Assembly (NCBI GenBank): GCA_964642615.1
Contig: CAZXSW010000003.1
Location: forward strand, 17,950 to 81,949
From: an uncultured Rikenellaceae bacterium
GTDB lineage: Bacteria; Bacteroidota; Bacteroidia; Bacteroidales; VadinHA17
Reading direction: 5' to 3'
DNA length: 64,000 nt
Positions 838 to 49,678 of this stretch are shown here, in pieces. A model generated the notes under the pieces. That model saw only the letters and a program-made list of their open reading frames with translations, ran no database searches and was not told the origin of the DNA. The position numbers and the translations under genes are program-made. Numbering within the stretch: position 1 is the stretch's first letter; each line of letters starts with the position of its first letter.

Positions 838-2940
838 ATGGACAGCAACCTGAAAAATACCAGAAACATTGGGATCATGGCACATATTGATGCCGGAAAG
901 ACCACTACCACCGAACGGATACTGTTCTTTACGGGCCGTACCCACAGGCTGGGAGAGGTCCATGACGGCAATGCGCTGATGGACTGGATGGTTCAGGAAC
1001 AGGAAAGAGGAATCACCATTACCTCAGCTGCCACCACAACATTCTGGAAATTCAGGGGCGATGACTATAAGATAAATATAATAGACACCCCGGGGCATGT
1101 CGATTTTACCGTAGAAGTGGAAAGATCGCTCAGGGTCCTTGACGGTGCCGTTGCTGTTTTCTGTGCTGTCGGCGGGGTAGAACCCCAGTCGGAGACGGTA
1201 TGGAGGCAGGCAAATAAATATCATGTACCCAGACTGGCCTTTATAAACAAGATGGACAGGTCGGGGGCTGACTTTTTCAGTGTGGTTCAGCAGATAAAGG
1301 AAAAACTGGGTGCAAATCCCATTCCCATACATCTGCCGATCGGAGCTGAAGAGAATTTCAGGGGGATGGTCGACCTTCTTTCCATGAAGGCTATCATCTA
1401 CTATGATGATGATAAAACCGTTACCCGACCCGAGATAGAAGATATTCCGCCGGAGTTTCTTGCCGAGGCAGAGGAGCTCAGGGGTAAGATGATCGAATCG
1501 CTTGCCGATGTCGACGATACCCTTCTGGAGAGGTATATGGAGGATCATAATTCCATTACAGAGGATGAGATAAGGACGGCTATAAGGAAGTCGACTGTAC
1601 TTGGACTGGCAATTCCGGTTATATGCGGAAGTGCTTTCAAGAACAAGGGTATTCAGATTCTTCTCGACTCAGTTACATCGTATCTGCCTTCACCTGTTGA
1701 TATTGGGGCTGTAAAAGGCACCGATCCAAGGGACGGCAGTGAGATATTCCGTGAGCCTGATGATGAAGCTCCGTTTGCTGCCCTGGCGTTCAAGATAGCC
1801 ACTGATCCCTTTGTTGGAAGGCTTGTCTTTCTGAGAATTTATTCAGGAGTACTTCATGCCGGGGATACGGTTCTCAACATGCGGACAGGCAAGAGGGAAA
1901 GGATCAACCGCCTGTTCCAGATGCATGCCAACAAGCAGAATCCGAAAGAAAGCATCTCGGCGGGAGACATCTGTGCCGGGGTTGGGTTTAAGGATCTGAA
2001 GACGGGTGACACTCTTTGTGCCATACACAAACCAATTACACTGGAGTCTATGGATTTCCCCGAGCCTGTTATAGGTGTTGCAGTGGAGCCAAAGACCCAG
2101 GCAGATATAGACAAGCTTTCGCTTGCGCTTAGCAAGCTTGCTGAGGAAGATCCCACTTTCCAGGTAAAGACTGATCCCGACAGCGGGCAGACTATAATAA
2201 GCGGTATGGGTGAGTTGCATCTTGAGATACTTGTCGACCGGCTTAGGAGGGAGTTCAAGGTTGAATGCAACCAGGGAGCTCCGCAGGTTGCCTATAAGGA
2301 AGCCCTCACTACAGCAACTGAATTCCGCGAGGTGTTCAAGAAGCAGTCTGGCGGACGTGGTAAATTCGCTGACATCAGTGCCGGGATAATGCCGGCCGAT
2401 GAAGATGTGCACGGGCTTCAGTTTATAAATGAAATCAAAGGAGGAAACATTCCTAAAGAATATATCCCGGCTATCGAGAAGGGATTCCGTGAGGCCATGC
2501 TTAATGGTCCGCTTGCGGGATTTGCTGTCGAGAGCCTCAAGGTGATACTAAGAGACGGTTCGTACCATCCGGTTGACTCGGATGCACTCTCGTTTGAGAT
2601 CGCGGCTAAACAGGCGTTCAGGAAATATGCAGGGAAATGCAATCCTGTTATTCTTGAGCCTATTATGTCGACAGAAGTAGTTACTCCCGAAGAGTATGTC
2701 GGTGATGTAATAAGCGATTTCAACAGACGCAGGGGCAGGGTGGAAGGTATGGAATCGAAAGCAGGTGCAAGGGTTGTAAAAGCAAAAGTACCTCTGGCCG
2801 AGAAGTTCGGTTATGTTACAGTACTAAGAACCCTTACCTCCGGAAGGGCAACTTCAACTATGGAGTTTTCACATTACGAAGAGGTGCCTGCAGAAATAGC
2901 AAACAGAATTGTTGAAGTTACAAAAGGAAAAATTCTTTAA
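838..2940 (+). CDS. fusA: elongation factor G
   Basis: 700 aa; GTPase motifs [23 protein letters not shown] and NKMD; EF-G length and str-operon position. Confidence 0.97.
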
Positions 2941-2943
2941 AAG

Positions 2944-3249
2944 ATGAGTCAGAAAATTCGCATTAAACTGAAATCGTACGATCACAACCTTGTGGACAAG
3001 TCCGCAGAAAAGATTGTGAAAACAGTGAAATCGACGGGTGCTGTTGTCAGCGGTCCTATACCGCTTCCTACGCACAAAAAGATTTATACCGTTCTTCGTT
3101 CCCCGTTTGTCAATAAAAAGGCAAGAGAGCAGTTTCAGCTTTCTTCATACAAGCGGTTGCTCGACATCTACAGCTCGACTCCAAAGACAATCGATGCACT
3201 GATGAAACTTGAGCTTCCAAGCGGAGTAGAAGTAGAAATAAAAGTTTGA
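2944..3249 (+). CDS. rpsJ: 30S ribosomal protein S10
   Basis: 101 aa, [14 protein letters not shown]... is typical of S10; heads the S10 block directly after fusA. Confidence 0.97.
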
Positions 3250-3270
3250 AACCAGTAAAGTTATCAAGAC

Positions 3271-3894
3271 ATGCAGGGATTAATAGGTAAAAAGGTTGGA
3301 ATGACGTCCGTATTTGATGAAAACGGAAAGAATATTCCTTGTACGGTACTGCAGGCAGGTCCATGTGTAGTTACCCAGATAAAGACAAAGGAAAGGGACG
3401 GCTACTTTGCTGTACAGTTTGGTTTCGATGAGAAAAAGGAAAAGCATACTACAAAGGCTGAACTTGGCCATTTTAATAAGGTAAACACCACGCCCAAAAG
3501 GAAGCTTGTTGAGTTCCCGGGTTTTGAAGAGGGCCGTTTCAGTGAAGGCGAGGTGGTGACTGTCGACAGCGTTTTCGGCTCTGATGAATGGGTTGATGTA
3601 AGGGGCTGGTCGAAAGGAAAGGGATTCCAGGGTGTTGTAAAGCGTCACGGCTTCGCAGGTGTTGGCGGACAGACCCATGGACAGCACAACAGGGGCAGGG
3701 CACCAGGTTCGCTTGGAGCTTCTTCGTTCCCTTCAAGGGTGTTGCCCGGTATGAGGATGGCAGGAAGGATGGGAGGTAACCAGGTTATTTCCGAGAGTAT
3801 GAGAGTAATCAGGCTGATGCCCGAGAATAATATTTTAATAGTGAAAGGATCCGTACCGGGTCCCAGAGGTGGTTACGTAATAATTACAAAGTGA
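3271..3894 (+). CDS. rplC: 50S ribosomal protein L3
   Basis: 207 aa, ...[19 protein letters not shown]... L3 motif; operon order. Confidence 0.97.
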
Positions 3895-4523
3895 TGGAAT
3901 TATCTGTTCTGAATATTGATGGTAAAGAGACCGGAAGGAAAGTCAATCTCAATGATTCGGTCTTCGGCATTGAACCCAACGACCATGCCATTTATCTGGA
4001 TACAAAGCAGTACCTGGCGAATCAGAGGCAGGGTACTCATAAAGCCAAGGAACGTGGTGAGGTGTCAGGAAGCACCAGAAAGATCAAGCGTCAGAAGGGA
4101 ACCGGTACAGCACGCGCCGGCAGTATAAAGAGCCCTCTCTTCAGGGGTGGTGGTCGTATCTTTGGACCAAGACCAAGGTTTTATGGCTTCAAGCTTAACA
4201 AGAAGGTTAAGGAACTTGCAAGAAAATCAGCACTTTCCTATAAAGCTTCATCCAATAGTATTATTGTTCTGGAAGATTTCTCCCTGGAGACTCCTAAAAC
4301 AAAGGAGATGATAAGAATGGGAGGCAATCTGAATATAGCGAATAAAAAATTGCTTTTTGTTTTATCGGAACAAAATAATAATATATATTTGTCATCCCGA
4401 AATGTACAAGGGCTGGATGTTGTAACTGCTGGAGAATTAAGCACTTACAAAATTATGAAAGCTTCAACCCTGATCCTTGTCGAGAGTGCAGTTGACGTTT
4501 TGCAGGCAGCTTTTGAAAATTAG
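3894..4523 (+). CDS. rplD: 50S ribosomal protein L4
   Basis: ...[26 protein letters not shown]... is L4-like. The ATG at 3894 overlaps the rplC stop (TGATG); the GTG at 3891 used by the ORF track is an alternative start. Confidence 0.93.
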
Positions 4524-4536
4524 AAAATTTAAAGTG

Positions 4537-23332: not shown

Positions 23333-23437
23333 ATGAAACCCACATGTATTTCATACACGAACACCCATGTATTTAATTGTCATACATATGGGTTATCCCA
23401 CTTATGCGGGAACCTGAAAAATTAAAATTATAAACGG
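23333..23437 (+). repeat. copy 1 of a three-copy upstream cassette (ATGAAACCCACATG...CATATGGGTT...ACCT-A-rich-ATG)
   Basis: Shares its ends and tail with 32492-32385 (-) and 49678-49588 (-); runs up to the ATG at 23438. Confidence 0.7.
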
Positions 23438-24193
23438 ATGAAAAGCACGTTGAGATTGATTGACGTAGTTCTTGTACTGGTGGTTTTGTCATTTCCGGTA
23501 ATGCTTCTGGGGCAGGAGGAGAAGGCTATGGTGAAATACACTCCTGATTTCAGGTTCAGGGACGGTATTTACCTGAATTTTGACCAGGTCAGGCTCAATG
23601 ACCCGGTCCCCAAAGCCAAAATACTGACATCAGCAGACTACAACGACAAGGAGTTTTTCAAAGATCTCTTTGAAAATGACAAGATCTATTTTTACGATAG
23701 TATGGGCTTGAGGCAGGAGGTCGACAAGAGTAATATATGGGGTTATGCCAGGAACGGGATCCTGTATATCCAGCTCCAGGGTAATTTCAACAGGATAACC
23801 TTTGTCGGCAGCATAAGCCATTTTGTAGCCGATGTAATTTCGTACGACAGCAGATATAATTCACCCTACGGTTATTATGATCCCTACTATTCCCCGTTCT
23901 ATTCGCCCTATTATAATCCGTATTCGTACGGGAGTTATTATCCCTACGGATCGTATTATTCTCCCTACCGTCAGAACTCAGCCCGGTCGGAGGTAAAACA
24001 GTACCTTATCGATTTCGAGAGCGGAAAGATGACTGAGTTTGACCTTGAGAGCACGGAGTTGTTTCTTATGAAAGACGGAGAACTTTACGAGGAATTTGTG
24101 CAGCTGCCAAGGAAAAAGAAAAAGGAGATGATGTTCGTTTTTGTCCGTCGTTTCAACGAAAAGAATCCCTTGTATATTCCTGAAAATAAATAA
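23438..24193 (+). CDS. hypothetical exported protein with a Tyr/Pro/Ser-rich low-complexity insert
   Basis: 251 aa with a hydrophobic N-terminal signal-like segment. Internal YDSRYNSPYGYYDPYYSPFYSPYYNPYSYGSYYPYGSYYSPY. No family recognised. Confidence 0.6.
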   Translation: MKSTLRLIDVVLVLVVLSFPVMLLGQEEKAMVKYTPDFRFRDGIYLNFDQVRLNDPVPKAKILTSADYNDKEFFKDLFENDKIYFYDSMGLRQEVDKSNIWGYARNGILYIQLQGNFNRITFVGSISHFVADVISYDSRYNSPYGYYDPYYSPFYSPYYNPYSYGSYYPYGSYYSPYRQNSARSEVKQYLIDFESGKMTEFDLESTELFLMKDGELYEEFVQLPRKKKKEMMFVFVRRFNEKNPLYIPENK

Positions 24194-31664: not shown

Positions 31665-32384
31665 TTAGTTGCGGAGGTCTCTTATCCGGCAGGCTTCCCT
31701 GAGGAAGCCGGGATCTTCTTCACAGCCGTTCCCGACTATAACCAGGTCGGCACCTGCAGAGTAGGCGTTTTCAATGTCCTTCCCGTTTTTAAGTCCTCCC
31801 CCAACGGCCAGGGGAACAGTTATACTTTTTCTGACAGAAGAGATAAGAGATGGAGGAATACATGTCTTTGCCCCGCTTCCTCCCTCGAGGTAGATCATTC
31901 CCAGTCCGAGCATCTCACCTGCCAGGGCAGTTGCTAAGACCAGTTCATCCTTGTCGGGAGGTATCGCCACCGTCTGGCTCATATATTCGACAGAGGTTTT
32001 GGAGCCACATCCCACAAGGATATATCCTGTTGGAATCAGTTTTTCCCTGATGTCAGAAAGGTAGGGGGCAGCAATGACATGATTACCGATAAGCAGTTCG
32101 GGGTTTCGTCCAGATATAAGTGAAAGCAGAAGGATAAAGTCGGCTCTTTTGCTCATCTGAAGCAGGTTTCCCGGGAATAGTACTACCGGGATGTTGCAGA
32201 GTTTCTTAATCTCGCCTATAAGAAGGTCGGTATCATTGAAAGTAAGGCTGCCTCCTGCAAGGATATAGTCGGGCCGGACTTCGGAAGCTATTTTCATCAG
32301 GACCGGCAACCGGTTGTCGGTGACCTTGTCGGGATCAATCAGTAATCCAAGGCTCCGTCGCGCCGGGAAGTCATATCTTTTCAT
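31665..32384 (-). CDS. geranylgeranylglyceryl-phosphate synthase family protein (PcrB/GGGPS-like)
   Basis: 239 aa TIM-barrel-like protein. ...LIDPDK..., ...GGS......, ...FPG.........AD..L..SL.SGRNP..LIG.H..., ...YLEGGSGA... and ...VGGGL... match the GGGPS/PcrB pattern. Confidence 0.8.
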   Translation of the reverse strand: MKRYDFPARRSLGLLIDPDKVTDNRLPVLMKIASEVRPDYILAGGSLTFNDTDLLIGEIKKLCNIPVVLFPGNLLQMSKRADFILLLSLISGRNPELLIGNHVIAAPYLSDIREKLIPTGYILVGCGSKTSVEYMSQTVAIPPDKDELVLATALAGEMLGLGMIYLEGGSGAKTCIPPSLISSVRKSITVPLAVGGGLKNGKDIENAYSAGADLVIVGNGCEEDPGFLREACRIRDLRN

Positions 32385-32492
32385 CCGTATATATTTTTTT
32401 TAAGGTCCCGCATCTGCGGGAGAACCGCACATGATTGATAATGAACAAGATTCATACTTGTTTGTGATTTGGTTCAATCATGTGGGTTTCAT
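32385..32492 (-). repeat. copy 2 of the three-copy upstream cassette
   Basis: The minus strand reads ATGAAACCCACATGATTGA...TCAATCATGTGCGGTTCTCCCGCAGATGCGGGACCTTAAAAAAAATATATACGG, then the ATG of the GGGPS gene. Overlaps the last 13 codons of the PPTase ORF. Confidence 0.7.
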
Positions 32493-33132
32493 AATTCTTT
32501 TTTGTCCAGACGATTGAATAATCTTTATACCTTGTATAGAAAAGGTCGAAGGAGTCGTTTATCTTTTTTGTATGGACTTTACCCTTTATCTCTCCCGATT
32601 CTTTTACCTCAAAAGGCTCGATGGTTATATTTCTTCTTAAGCTGATACCCTCTTTGTCGCATATTTTGTAAAGAGCTTCTTTTGCGCACCAGTGAAGGTA
32701 GAGATGATATTTCCTCTTATCGGGTTCCCTGGTTATCTTTTCCCTGCGGTTAATAAACTTGAATGATATGGCTCCTATGTTTGAGCTCATATATTCAAGG
32801 TCGATACCCACCTTCTCATTTGTGCTGCAGAGTATTGCAGTAAGCTTATTTGAGTGTGATATGGATATGAATCTTGATCCGTCCCTGAGGAAAGGTTTGT
32901 TATTCTTATTATATACTATTGAAGCTTCCTTACCAAGCAATTCGGCAAGCAGGGCTCTGACGCTCAGGAATTCGAGTTTTCTGGAGGTGCTCGAGAAGCT
33001 TTTGTATTTCTTCCTGTCTTCCGTGCCGAGGCTTACCATCTCCTCCATGGTTTTAAGGTCCTCTTCTATTTTCCAGACGCCGAGGATGGAATATTCGTTG
33101 AGAAAATGTTTCGTAATACAGCCCATCAGCAA
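32452..33132 (-). CDS. 4'-phosphopantetheinyl transferase family protein (Sfp-type)
   Basis: 226 aa; ...GIDLEYM... and ...WCAKEALYK... PPTase motifs. The C-terminal approx. 13 aa are encoded by repeat copy 2. Confidence 0.8.
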   Translation of the reverse strand: MLMGCITKHFLNEYSILGVWKIEEDLKTMEEMVSLGTEDRKKYKSFSSTSRKLEFLSVRALLAELLGKEASIVYNKNNKPFLRDGSRFISISHSNKLTAILCSTNEKVGIDLEYMSSNIGAISFKFINRREKITREPDKRKYHLYLHWCAKEALYKICDKEGISLRRNITIEPFEVKESGEIKGKVHTKKINDSFDLFYTRYKDYSIVWTKKNYETHMIEPNHKQV

Positions 33133-48816: not shown

Positions 48817-49587
48817 TTATTTCAGATCATTATACGGGAGATCGATCCTTCTATAGCCCAGGTGTTTGTTCCCGAAGTCTGTAATTTTCTCTGAGATGAC
48901 GCCTATATAATTCTCACCGGGGGTCCCTGATTTCTTAAGGACAATGGAACCTTTCCCTTCGGTTGTCTTTATAGGCTCGATAAGGGTAGTGTCAAACCTG
49001 CCGTTACTGAACTCTCCCCGGTAGAATTTTGCCTGTTTTGAGTCATCCGACAATGAGAGATCTATCCTGTAACTTCCCCTGGTGTTGTAATCATCGGTGA
49101 TGTTTACCACTATTTCGGGATATCCCTGTATTTTCCTGCCTTTTCTGTCATATTCCTCCAGGAATGGTGTCCGCAACCCCTTTTCATATCCTAACATGGC
49201 TTTCTTCTTCCCGTCTCTGTAGTACTGGACCTGTATGCCGTCGATGGTGTCATTTTTATAGGGTGTTGATCTGAAGAGCTGTCCCTCGGTGTAGTACCAT
49301 TTTGAACTGTCCTGGCGTATCCCGTTTTCGTACCAGAAGGTAACACGAAGCTGGCCTCCCTGGTAAAAGCCTTTTGTCAGGCCCTGTCTGACACCATTCC
49401 TGAAGGTGACCTCCTGGAATAGCTTTTCGTTGCTGAAGTATTGCTTTATCCCTGTAAATCCGGTGTCGGGAACGGTAACTGTATCAGCCGGGTTTACCTG
49501 GTCATTGTTAGCTGTGCCCCTGCCGGCACAGGCGGCAAAAAAACCGGCAATAGCCAGGGTAATCAGAGTGTTGTAAAAAATTTTCAT
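48817..49587 (-). CDS. lipoprotein with MORN-variant (YwqK-like) repeats
   Basis: 256 aa with lipobox-like AGFFAAC. Repeated ...Y.NG....G....YY..G.L.... units. Confidence 0.6.
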   Translation of the reverse strand: MKIFYNTLITLAIAGFFAACAGRGTANNDQVNPADTVTVPDTGFTGIKQYFSNEKLFQEVTFRNGVRQGLTKGFYQGGQLRVTFWYENGIRQDSSKWYYTEGQLFRSTPYKNDTIDGIQVQYYRDGKKKAMLGYEKGLRTPFLEEYDRKGRKIQGYPEIVVNITDDYNTRGSYRIDLSLSDDSKQAKFYRGEFSNGRFDTTLIEPIKTTEGKGSIVLKKSGTPGENYIGVISEKITDFGNKHLGYRRIDLPYNDLK

Positions 49588-49678
49588 CAGTAAAAAATTT
49601 TGATTTTAAAGGTCTGATGTAACCCATATGTTTGAAGATTATATACATGCTTGTTTGTTTCTTACATGTGGGTTTCAT
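49588..49678 (-). repeat. copy 3 of the three-copy upstream cassette
   Basis: The minus strand reads ATGAAACCCACATGTAAGAAACAAACAAGCATGTATATAATCTTCAAACATATGGGTTACATCAGACCTTTAAAATCAAAATTTTTTACTG, then the ATG of the MORN lipoprotein gene. Confidence 0.7.

Follow-up and report, generated by a model that had tools for sequence, protein, structure and literature searches.

Three genes in a 64,000-nucleotide stretch of an uncultured Rikenellaceae genome (the window, meaning the whole stretch analysed) are preceded by the same cassette, which the initial annotation read as a shared cis-regulatory or 5′-UTR module, possibly of a small regulon of envelope-related genes. We asked whether this cassette is an inherited regulatory module or a repeat that has inserted at these genes. 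The 14-mer ATGAAACCCACATG that marks it occurs exactly three times in the window (23333-23346 on the plus strand; 32479-32492 and 49665-49678 on the minus strand), against a chance expectation of ~0.65 matches with up to two mismatches. The inverted arms, including their copy-specific extensions, were borne out by the sequence and the predicted fold in all three copies (AACCCACATGTAT / ATACATATGGGTT in copy 1, AACCCACATGATTGA / TCAATCATGTGCGGTT in copy 2 and AACCCACATGT / ACATATGGGTT in copy 3). As had been noted, every copy ends on the ATG of an ORF: a 251-aa signal-peptide protein with no match in a Pfam search (23438-24193, plus strand), a PcrB/GGGPS-family protein (31665-32384, minus strand) and a MORN-repeat lipoprotein (48817-49587, minus strand). 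The similarity between the tails of copies 1 and 2 is real, and both copies have an extra small hairpin (CCCAC..GCGGG and CCCGC..GCGGG). The features of the three copies are as follows.

23333..23443, plus strand: copy 1, medium form of ~111 nt, from the orphaned left ATGAAA to the gene-starting right ATGAAA (nhmmer, 65 bits; covariance model R1, 63 bits)
23333..23338, plus strand: left ATGAAA of copy 1, the native start codon, now orphaned (empty-site alignment)
From 23333, plus strand: mini-ORF of copy 1 from the left ATG, 30 codons, MKPTCISYTNTHVFNCHTYGLSHLCGNLKN (mini-ORF table)
23337..23394, plus strand: main hairpin H1 of copy 1, arms 23337-23349 and 23382-23394 (sequence, predicted fold)
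23397..23410, plus strand: optional small hairpin Hx of copy 1 (CCCAC-ttat-GCGGG), between H1 and the tail (sequence, predicted fold)
23411..23437, plus strand: A/T-rich tail of copy 1, ending in ACGG right before the start codon (sequence)
23438..23440, plus strand: element-borne ATG of copy 1, start of the 251-aa signal-peptide protein (ORF, empty-site alignment)
32379..32492, minus strand: copy 2, an old, degenerate member of the "ACATGATTGA" subfamily (nhmmer, 28 bits)
32487-32492, minus strand: left ATGAAA of copy 2 (sequence)
32474-32488 and 32423-32438, minus strand: H1 arms of copy 2 (predicted fold of copy 2, −36.7 kcal/mol, z −3.9)
32407-32420, minus strand: Hx of copy 2 (sequence, predicted fold)
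32382-32384, minus strand: right ATG of copy 2, start of the PcrB-family gene (ORF)
32452..33132, minus strand: PPTase-family ORF upstream of copy 2, with its last 12 codons and stop inside copy 2 (ORF, family match)
49582..49678, minus strand: copy 3, short form of 97 nt (covariance model R1, 102 bits)
49673-49678, minus strand: left ATGAAA of copy 3 (sequence)
49664-49674 and 49621-49631, minus strand: H1 arms of copy 3 (predicted minimum-energy fold)
49614-49619 and 49585-49590, minus strand: junction-helix strands CATCAG and CTGATG of copy 3 (predicted minimum-energy fold)
49585-49587, minus strand: right ATG of copy 3, start of the MORN lipoprotein gene (ORF)

The cassette has three copies only within the window. 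The source genome (G000; a 2.7 Mb, 98.6% complete MAG of 214 contigs) contains 22 exact and 40 one-mismatch matches to ATGAAACCCACATG (reversed control, 0), and an nhmmer profile recovered 84 non-overlapping copies. We observed that 63 of these end exactly on the ATG of an ORF (56 at ORFs of at least 100 aa, 5 at ORFs open to a contig end and 2 at ORFs of 40-59 aa), and 9 further copies end on the next unit of a head-to-tail array. Start codons hold 56/66 decidable copies, above the 39.5% expected given 348 ATGAAA at starts and 532 at intergenic positions that are not starts (P = 4e-14). All copies are co-oriented with ATGAA, and 41/50 copies have G or T at −1 of the left flank, compared to 48% at unoccupied ATGAAA starts. 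The insertion site is shown to be (G/T)ATGAA(A), used in one orientation and in practice the Met-Lys start of a gene. By N-terminal resemblance, the genes after the copies include leuA, aspartokinase, asnS, tdh, gcvT, ilvN and carB; an esterase and many exported proteins are also among them.

These counts do not fit a small envelope regulon of three genes: the 84 copies precede unrelated genes, and the window sites are empty in relatives. The strict co-orientation of cassette and downstream gene was upheld. The initial annotation had proposed a profile scan of the genome in which random orientation would be the sign of a REP/MITE-like repeat; the copies turned out to be strictly oriented yet mobile, so orientation could not separate the regulatory from the mobile reading.

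The copies are 95-145 nt long and fall into three length classes, and six of them are 100% identical over 103 nt. Head-to-tail arrays occur at C12, C15, C23, C43, C76, C110 and C135, with units that are divergent from each other. Five of the eight youngest copies lie directly after an older, divergent unit (P = 0.01). Tail-only units are rare in the genome. We considered larger elements behind the hairpin-only matches in G021 and G017, which proved to be the medium form with the extra hairpin. An autonomous parent in this genome was likewise rejected, as the partial matches were long forms or decayed copies rather than gene-flanking ends.

Comparison with congeners showed what an insertion leaves behind. 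The copy 1 and copy 3 sites are each empty in 14/14 congeners examined, with a single ATGAAA in place of the element. At the site orthologous to copy 2, only the source genome and G004, the genome closest to it, have the element, and 10 other congeners show one ATGAAA or a close variant; at these empty sites the upstream PPTase-family ORF ends in ...YE(R/K)x* and overlaps the downstream ATG. Empty sites in congeners at all three window positions mean that the copies arrived by insertion and were not inherited as a regulatory module. The proposed 5′-UTR or cis module stands as a description of position (a 5′ leader for copy 1, between cistrons for copies 2 and 3) but not as inherited regulation.

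The copy at C61 separates what the element brings from what was already there. G004 has an empty site there, ATGAAT; the filled site of G000 has the hexamer ATGAAA on the left and ATGAAT on the right. The sixth base on the left differs from the empty site, so that base, and by extension the right ATG, is element-borne. Two findings are new here: the repeated hexamers at the flanks are no genuine 6-bp duplication of the target, and the element brings its own ATG, stranding the native start upstream. An insertion is shown to leave the original start codon, with the signals ahead of it, at the left edge of the element, and the element's last bases (NNG-ATG) become the new start. As this start keeps the register of the second codon, the coding sequence of the gene does not change. 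Among classical MITE features, terminal inverted repeats were not found; the ends are direct (5′ (ATG)AAACCC and 3′ CTGATG(AAA)), the inverted repeat is internal, and the flanking repeat is constant in sequence without being an exact duplication.

A promoter-like block upstream of the left ATG of copy 1 is conserved in all congeners, and copies 2 and 3 both lie between co-oriented genes. Judging from conserved promoter blocks and operon context, the element would be transcribed within the leader or intercistronic RNA, where its unstructured A/U-rich tail may act as a new Shine-Dalgarno-less initiation region.

Within the genus, copy number ranges from 0 to >70, and an order-wide sample gave matches in 14/201 genomes and 13/167 genera. 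Long-read Bacteroidales MAGs such as JAXGLU01, JAXGYS01 and CAVTPT01 have the repeat as well. Copy 3 is fixed: 7 contigs from other samples carry it unchanged. We saw no presence/absence polymorphism within the species, as every other-sample contig at copies 1 and 3 carried them, and so did those at two of the youngest copies, which gives no sign of current activity. Runs that yielded such contigs include SRR8925788, SRR8925803 and SRR21159525. Collections of phages, plasmids and viral contigs gave no match to the element, and a limited full-text literature search found no published description of a start-codon hairpin repeat in Bacteroidales. The unrelated genes, the empty sites, the range of 0 to >70 copies and the six identical copies together are the signature of a mobile or duplicative repeat and not of an inherited operator.

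From its left edge, the element has the long hairpin H1 (AACCCACATGT...ACATGTGGGTT), then in some copies another hairpin, and then an A/T-rich tail of 23 nt. The cells of H1 are ~90-97% paired, and in the G036 lineage three H1 pairs have changed on both sides. This supports the earlier description of a hairpin-forming module whose pairing is kept despite sequence change. The H1 stem resembles a double-stranded target, with ATGAAA opposite TTMCAT and a conserved mismatch. Unrelated hairpins occupy the Hx position in other copies of the element.

A second, 6-bp helix is a new finding. The segment just 3′ of H1 (CATCNN) pairs with the last bases of the element (NNGATG), and the top two mutual-information column pairs of the whole element (69-95 and 70-94) fall in this junction helix. 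It is 97% paired in 65 copies from 11 other genomes, where one pair is AU in 53 copies and CG in 11, and the second is GC in 43 and UA in 18. Across the source genome and these 11 others, the helix covaries in three forms whose variants are spread over different H1 backgrounds, a covariation that is not fully independent as subfamilies share descent and covariance-model alignment leans toward the given structure. Inspection of listings by eye showed no correlation between junction-helix class and the left flank (−3 to −1), which argues that the covariation is internal to the element. Both helices are present in the predicted minimum-energy fold of copy 3, and at the RNA level the predicted fold allows the small helix to mask the AUG. 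From the covariation we infer that TTMCATCNN just 3′ of H1 can pair with the left or the right (NN)GATGAA, a pairing that would join the two ends or, in a circular or tandem form, extend H1 to ~18 bp.

Reading from the left ATG, 14/23 distinct ungapped units (8.3 expected) stay open until a TGA that overlaps the following ATG, and the length variants 95, 98, 119 and 137 keep this mini-ORF frame. The main subfamily has a frame of 31 codons that begins at the old ATG and whose UGA overlaps the new AUG (UGAUG), an arrangement that may couple translation. A mini-ORF relay is not universal: in a widespread subfamily that includes copy 2 of the window, the frame stops at codon 5 (MKPT*), and the lengths of many copies break the frame. 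Conservation of the element tracks base pairing, not codons. An Rfam search of the whole window at gathering thresholds gave no match, and none was found around copy 1 up to E = 1.

We searched for an enzyme that could mobilize the repeat. Y1_Tnp (PF01797) had no match in G000 or G021; G017 had only a fragment, and the matches in G223 and G139 were weak and partial. The same family is present in element-free congeners (e.g. G009, G012, G014 and G022), and across genomes the Y1 enzymes (IS200/IS605/RAYT) showed no association with the element. A Y1 gene of G004, 2 kb from an element copy, was rejected as a candidate, being a RAYT with its own unrelated GTAG-type REPs. No small single-domain GIY-YIG protein (cd10448-type, Ssn) was found among the matches individually listed for G000, G013, G017 and G021, which have only two GIY-YIG matches each; those listed are in frames of 550-617 aa, and the one listed for G000 is in a UvrC-sized frame (614 aa). 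The integron integrase TIGR02249 was never above cut-off in 41 genomes of the genus, and the integron core sites GTTRRRY/RYYYAAC were not found in the element, whose arms read GATGAAAC / GTTMCATC. Reverse transcriptase RVT_1 is absent from G000, G005, G013, G017, G019 and G021, and no multi-copy protein gene is assembled in G000. Judged by local GC skew, the element showed no replication-strand bias (top strand G-rich at 23 loci, C-rich at 25; 54% among control ORFs), a signal that is weak in a fragmented 214-contig MAG.

Taken together, these data argue strongly that the cassette is a mobile, start-site-targeting and gene-sparing repeat, and it is very likely a non-autonomous mobile DNA repeat of uncultured Bacteroidales without a gene of its own. 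The rival reading as a regulon, in which a protein or ligand binds the hairpin as an operator or 5′-UTR switch and co-regulates the genes behind it, would account for the strict co-orientation, the fixed distance to the start codon, the conserved hairpin pairing and an AUG that the small helix could sequester. It is nevertheless very improbable: the downstream genes are unrelated in function, the same genes work without the element at the empty sites of congeners, the identical copies and the range from none to >70 per species indicate bursts, divergent units stand in head-to-tail arrays, and Rfam gave nothing even at E = 1. We consider it scarcely credible that the copies are small peptide genes of one multi-copy family (MKPTCIADTNTYVYNFQTCGLHQTIKIKIIY) whose translation is coupled to that of the gene downstream. 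The excess of open frames with the TGA/ATG overlap and the four frame-keeping lengths would suit such a family, but the early stop in the subfamily of copy 2, the many frame-breaking lengths, the conservation of pairing rather than codons and the insertion of copies beside unrelated genes speak against it.

How such a repeat would spread is less certain. Movement by recombination of a folded strand or circle is our tentative preference, held at somewhat under even chances. The element would move as a folded single strand or small circle, and a candidate trans-acting enzyme would recombine this intermediate with ATGAA sites, with the crossover predicted inside TGAA. An IS200/IS605-type miniature element (PATE) or REP-like repeat, mobilized by a trans-acting Y1 HUH transposase (TnpA/RAYT) in a single-strand process of "peel and paste" with a guide by the hairpin foot that pairs with the cleavage sites, would share the oriented insertion by a fixed 4-5-nt motif without true target duplication (as at C61) and a hairpin-adjacent segment that pairs and covaries with the element end, like the IS608 guide and cleavage site. 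This origin seems quite improbable given that the element-rich G000 and G021 encode no intact Y1_Tnp while element-free congeners do, that the Y1 near the G004 copy serves other repeats, that there is one main hairpin instead of two subterminal ones, and that no orientation bias relative to local GC skew was seen (23 versus 25 loci, itself a weak signal). Enzyme-free spread by host replication and repair is also improbable. Here a nascent strand whose end reads ATGAA would switch template at the ATGAA bordering a copy, replicate the unit and switch back, and homologous exchange between tails would add array units. It would agree with the lack of Y1, small GIY-YIG, integron integrase and reverse transcriptase genes in G000, with short direct repeats at the unit's bounds that are identical to the target, with the preference of the youngest copies for sites already bearing a unit, and with a target G at −1 and A at +7 that match the element's own end (GATGAAAA). 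A double switch on 5-7 nt of homology should be rare, yet ~20% of ATGAAA starts have been reached and bursts of identical copies occur; helices that are conserved and covary across distant lineages suggest a recognized structure, and the patchy occurrence in 13 genera implies transfer between lineages.

Returning to recombination of a folded strand or circle, a bolder version of it would posit a new class of mobile DNA in bacteria, one that finds translation starts through nucleic-acid pairing. In this doubtful extension, an "anti-start" TTMCATCNN at the hairpin foot would pair with ATGAA at the target and at the element's own end. A ~95-nt folded single-strand circle would recombine between the first and second codon of Met-Lys genes, rebuild the start from its last bases and relay translation from the old start, and the catalyst would be an enzyme family without a prior link to transposition or a host housekeeping recombinase.

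Several known repeats share parts of this organization. Like PATEs, IS200/IS605 elements and RAYT-moved REPs/REPINs, the element is small, gene-less and hairpin-based, inserts in one orientation by a short fixed motif without real target duplication, and has a hairpin-adjacent internal segment that pairs with its end. Here CATCNN, beside the hairpin, shows pairing and covariation with NNGATG at the right end, and could pair with the left ATG too. IS200/IS605 elements have two subterminal hairpins, whereas this element has one main hairpin plus the junction helix; it also differs in that G000 has no Y1 transposase, that the target is a start codon and that it has no GTAG head of the kind seen in REPs. 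Mycobacterial interspersed repetitive units (MIRUs) are short units, often head-to-tail, that are intercistronic in operons and have small frames overlapping flanking stop and start codons, which preserves expression. MIRUs are not known to have a long hairpin or to lie on a defined hexamer. The likeness lies in short intercistronic units, often in arrays, with small frames overlapping flanking gene ends; the element here provides the start codon itself, also at first genes behind promoters. MIRUs were reportedly described by Supply et al. in 1997.

The termini of the element are direct (5′ AAACCC ... CTGATG 3′) and its junction is sequence-fixed, in contrast to the Correia elements of Neisseria, whose ends are inverted repeats and which duplicate TA, as is typical of DDE-type MITEs. 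Correia elements and REP2 repeats are ~100-150 bp, gene-adjacent and co-transcribed, are able to supply expression signals and show patchy, lineage-specific expansions. Rickettsia palindromic elements are similarly palindromic repeats whose insertion keeps genes functional. They insert in frame inside coding sequences and are translated within the protein, whereas the element described here lodges between codons 1 and 2 and makes the start anew. Integron attC sites and the CTX-phi (+)ssDNA hairpin are folded single-strand recombination substrates. They share with the element an imperfect hairpin whose stem mimics a double-stranded target and head-to-tail arrays with one core common to neighbouring units, and the junction seen here is consistent with small-circle integration. 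The element differs in having no integron integrase or linked recombinase, no GTTRRRY/RYYYAAC core and hundreds of gene starts as targets rather than one attI or dif site. Ssn GIY-YIG single-strand nucleases recognize NTS/SRM hairpin repeats as single strands, and these repeats are present in hundreds, oriented and gene-clustered, with no location on start codons reported (Chenal et al. 2025, PMC11893778). Oriented hairpin repeats near genes are common to both systems; the repeat sequence is unrelated.

If our reading holds, ~3% of the organism's genes carry a foreign 100-nt structured leader between their native signals and coding sequence and are still functional, among them, by N-terminal resemblance, the housekeeping genes aspartokinase, leuA, asnS and carB. 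It is unusual for a repeat to target the start codon, to avoid harm by a carried replacement start and to have no recognizable transposase. The element may be a natural, portable, Shine-Dalgarno-less translation-initiation cassette for Bacteroidota that could be put to further use. For annotation, the repeat yields false "conserved micro-ORFs" and false "regulons", and gives upstream genes altered C-termini, copy 2 being an example. Short-read assemblies are interrupted by it right at the starts of genes; we observed that other-sample contigs at two of the youngest copies break inside the repeat.

The 14-mer ATGAAACCCACATG was found exactly three times in the window, where the initial annotation had placed it: in copy 1 (23333, + strand), copy 2 (32492, − strand) and copy 3 (49678, − strand). 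The layout, inverted repeat and start-codon endings described there for the three cassettes were all reproduced. Read in gene sense, each copy begins with ATGAAA, continues through a long inverted repeat (AACCCACATG(T)... / ...(A)CATRTGGGTT) and an A/T-rich stretch, and ends in AC(G/T)G-ATGAAAA; copies 1 and 2 carry a small second hairpin after the long inverted repeat. The last ATG was an ORF start in all three cases. The copy 1 product had no Pfam match and its N-terminus reads as a signal peptide, while Pfam identified the copy 2 product as a PcrB/GGGPS-family protein and the copy 3 product as a MORN-repeat lipoprotein.

We observed that these copies are insertions. The element inserts in one orientation at (G/T)ATGAA(A), leaves the coding sequence intact and provides an ATG of its own; its spread comes in lineage-specific bursts. 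For each window copy, orthologous regions from as many as 15 congeners were aligned. The copy 1 site was empty in 14 of 14 congeners (...CCATT-ATGAAA-AAGGCG...), including G004, the closest relative of the window's genome, G000 (80% protein identity). A promoter-like block at this locus, TT(A/T)AATTTG-N-GGTACAAT(A/T)TTTGA, was kept in all congeners aligned, and in G000 it lies upstream of the left ATGAAA. The copy 3 site was also empty (14/14 congeners), with the stop of a mannose-6-phosphate isomerase gene followed by a 25-40-nt spacer and a start codon, mostly ATGAAA. At the copy 2 site, 10 congeners had a single ATGAAA or close variant overlapping the end of the upstream phosphopantetheinyl-transferase gene, and G002, G006 and G008 had a short unrelated spacer. 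This site was filled only in G000 and G004, and the element was degenerate in both. The phosphopantetheinyl-transferase-family ORF upstream of copy 2 (− strand) now ends 40 nt inside the element with a new C-terminus. Its last 12 residues (THMIEPNHKQV*-like; window 32452-32492, − strand) are element-encoded, and the native end found in congeners, ...YE(R/K)x*, is lost in G000; the copy 2 insertion thus rewrote the C-terminus of a neighbouring protein.

In contigs from other samples, we saw no polymorphism within the species for copies 1 and 3 and two of the youngest copies, because copies 1 and 3 were fixed (identical in 7 and 3 contigs) and the contigs for the two young copies break inside the repeat's tail. 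Short-read contigs of the window's species (L269-L274; Logan contigs from SRR8925803, SRR8925789, SRR21159530, SRR21159525 and SRR8925788) end 19-23 nt upstream of the ATG in genes with the identical canonical unit. Gene starts are exactly where the repeat systematically interrupts assemblies.

The window's assembly is a 2.71-Mb MAG of an uncultured Bacteroidales (214 contigs, 98.6% complete). In this MAG the 14-mer occurred 22 times exactly and 40 times with one mismatch (reversed control, 0), and a search with a profile built from 19 copies identified 84 non-overlapping units. The "three copies" of the initial annotation hold for the window only. The canonical unit is (T)GATGAAACCCACATGTATTGCAGACACAAACACGTATGTATATAATTTTCAGACATGTGGGTTACATCAGACCATTAAAATTAAAATTATATACTGATGAAA(A), and six copies were 98-100% identical over 103 nt. 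By length the units formed three classes: the shortest was ~103 nt, the middle one (112-122 nt) carried one more small hairpin beyond the right arm, and the longest (~144 nt) had a larger insert. Gene starts were taken from ORFs, not from a gene caller.

What lies at the 3' end of the 84 units in the window's genome
56/84 units: exactly the start ATG of an ORF ≥100 aa long
5/84 units: an ORF open to the contig end
2/84 units: a 41- or 59-aa ORF, small lipoprotein- or membrane-protein-like
9/84 units: the next unit, head to tail
2/84 units: a gap
10/84 units: no ORF; mostly decayed copies

Among decidable units, 56 of 66 were at starts, compared to 39.5% expected for any intergenic ATGAAA (P = 4e-14). 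The genome has 3476 ATGAAA occurrences, ~2513 of them inside ORFs; outside ORF interiors, ~348 are long-ORF starts and ~532 are non-start intergenic. About one-fifth of all ATGAAA starts are occupied. Neither the position nor the orientation of the units was random. In 41 of 50 single copies, G or T preceded the left ATGAAA, versus 48% at unoccupied ATGAAA starts, and this excess indicates that the preferred site is (G/T)ATGAAA(A).

A 6-bp target duplication by the flanking ATGAAA pair was ruled out by the hexamers at contig C61 and by hexamer variation. At C61, the gene and the empty G004 site both begin ATGAAT, and the left hexamer in G000 is ATGAAA. Across 137 copies from 12 genomes, the ATG of the right hexamer was invariant and position 6 variable; the left hexamer varied mostly at position 1 (TTG, GTG, CTG). 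On the simplest reading, the element would be AAACCC...NNGATG, or would have at most TGAA/ATGAA in common with the target. It would sit between codons 1 and 2, with the old start staying on the left and an element-borne ATG replacing it on the right.

The main hairpin (H1) was paired at ~90% per position in G000 and 97% in 65 copies from 11 other genomes. In G036, from another family, three H1 pairs were changed on both sides (AACAUCCAUGU / ACAUGGAUGUU). Opposite the first A after ATG, the right arm has a conserved mismatched C or A, and the optional second hairpin has a constant position and at least two unrelated sequences. The two top mutual-information column pairs of the whole element join the segment 3' of H1 to the last bases before the right ATG. 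These form a 6-bp junction helix, CAUCNN / NNGAUG, whose three forms (AG/CT, AT/AT, CG/CG) were found on differing H1 and length backgrounds. In the 65 copies from other genomes it was 97% paired in a covariance-model alignment, which is biased towards the given structure; one base pair was AU in 53 copies and CG in 11, the second GC in 43 and UA in 18, counted as sequences and not as independent events. This covarying helix is new here, and its covariation argues that the two unit ends function side by side. The CATC segment can pair with the left or the right GATG, and in a circle or tandem array the junction helix becomes an extension of H1 to ~18 bp. RNAfold minimum-energy folds contained both helices in a canonical copy (−22.8 kcal/mol, z −2.6) and copy 3 (−18.0 kcal/mol, z −2.4). 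Wobbles on the gene-sense strand (G.T 24 versus A.C 9) are weak evidence that this may be the folding strand, because 9 of the 24 G.T came from one subfamily.

The H1 loop of the canonical unit (e.g. G000:C43:14185-14195) contains TAATTTTC, one base off TAnnTTTG, the Bacteroidota −7 promoter box. The C7 copy (G000:C7:16973-17074) has a perfect TAATTTTG ~50 nt upstream of the right ATG, and the loop may hold a putative internal outward promoter. At G000:C59:2265-2420, a full unit is followed by one without exactly the hairpin (GATG|CCATCAGAC...ACGGATGAAAG), and the real start of a carB-like gene lies 7 nt beyond the hairpin-less unit. This arrangement suggests that precise hairpin deletion may occur and leave a tail-only short form behind.

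In the canonical subfamily, the frame from the left ATG has 31 codons and its TGA stop overlaps the right ATG (TGATG). The frame was open in 14 of 23 distinct ungapped units versus 8.3 expected from random substitutions, and the register is also preserved in variants with lengths of 95, 98, 119 and 137 nt. A peptide gene family is one rival explanation of the element. The mini-ORF stops at codon 5 in the widespread 'ACATGATTGA' subfamily, copy 2 included; a translational relay may thus exist in part of the copies and does not define the element. A true regulatory module is another rival, and the initial annotation had proposed one for envelope genes. The genes downstream of the 84 units were not a functional set: by N-terminal sequence they include leuA, aspartokinase, asnS, tdh, gcvT, ilvN and carB, one is an esterase (Pfam-confirmed), and many encode exported proteins. 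The element would be transcribed together with the gene, because the conserved promoter and the upstream cistrons are found on its left side. Its unpaired A/U-rich tail would allow initiation without a Shine-Dalgarno sequence, a mode that Bacteroidota use.

Within the genus, genomes had 0 to >70 candidate copies. Of 201 genomes drawn evenly across the order, 14 had matches, several of them with bursts; these 14 represent 13 of the 167 genera sampled and about a dozen families. In a scan of named genomes, the MAGs with the hairpin bore the labels Bacteroidales, Paludibacteraceae, Rikenellaceae and Lentimicrobium, and their isolate names refer to samples from anaerobic reactors, biofilms and other environments. 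Phage, plasmid and viral-contig collections gave no match. Neighbouring units within arrays were divergent, and arrays therefore grew by successive insertions. An older unit immediately precedes five of the eight youngest units (P = 0.01). This preference for already occupied sites is new here, and the data suggest that the element's own tail may improve the target.

In the mechanism we propose, a folded single strand or a small circle would be the mobile form of the unit. Its stem would show ATGAA opposite TTMCAT, mimicking the target, and a trans-acting recombinase would exchange strands within TGAA. Y1-type peel-and-paste, a rival, was weakened by the enzyme search: Y1_Tnp was absent from G000 and G021, had fragmentary or weak matches only in G017, G223 and G139, and was present in element-free congeners. 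The Y1 gene near one G004 copy was rejected as mobiliser; it encodes a RAYT that has GTAG REPs of its own. For small (Ssn-type) GIY-YIG enzymes, G000 gave only two GIY-YIG matches, the individually listed one in a UvrC-sized 614-aa frame. No integron integrase match exceeded the family cut-off within the genus, reverse transcriptase was absent from six element-rich genomes, and ordinary tyrosine recombinases, present everywhere, allowed no discrimination. We found no assembled multi-copy protein gene in G000 and no orientation bias relative to local GC skew, whose signal is weak in a 214-contig MAG. No known small-repeat mobiliser was supported, and this absence is not proof because insertion sequences and plasmids may be missing from a MAG. 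Enzyme-free template switching is the rival in which the element spreads with no recombinase.

The element partly resembles PATE/REP elements (a single-strand hairpin at a fixed motif, without duplication), MIRUs (units between cistrons, with frames overlapping stops and starts) and attC or CTX-phi substrates (target-mimicking hairpin, arrays with one common core). It fails testable defining features of the PATE/REP and integron attC families; of the MIRU features, head-to-tail arrays occur and the overlapping frame is open in part of the units. A full-text search for a start-codon hairpin repeat in Bacteroidales found no published description; added here are three empty-site proofs for the window, a boundary test and four negative enzyme tests.

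Small GIY-YIG genes were observed in two other genomes as six and seven head-to-tail copies (G003:C7:206769-208687 and G045:C14:2072923-2075317, respectively), with frames of ~84-157 aa and a period of ~343-364 nt; the G045 array lies ~1.6 kb from a Y1_Tnp gene (2076934-2077278). At locus L039 (G004:C4:1035500-1042500, local ~2360-3830), a tRNA gene is followed by ~11 tandem units of ~135-140 nt, each consisting of the tRNA 3' half (GGGTCGTCTGTTCGAGTCAGATCACCCCGAC) and a terminator-like hairpin. A RAYT-like Y1 gene (local 4067-4525, − strand) with GTAG-type REP sequences lies beside them. These units might be integration scars stacked on one another, or the tRNA end might have seeded a repeat array.
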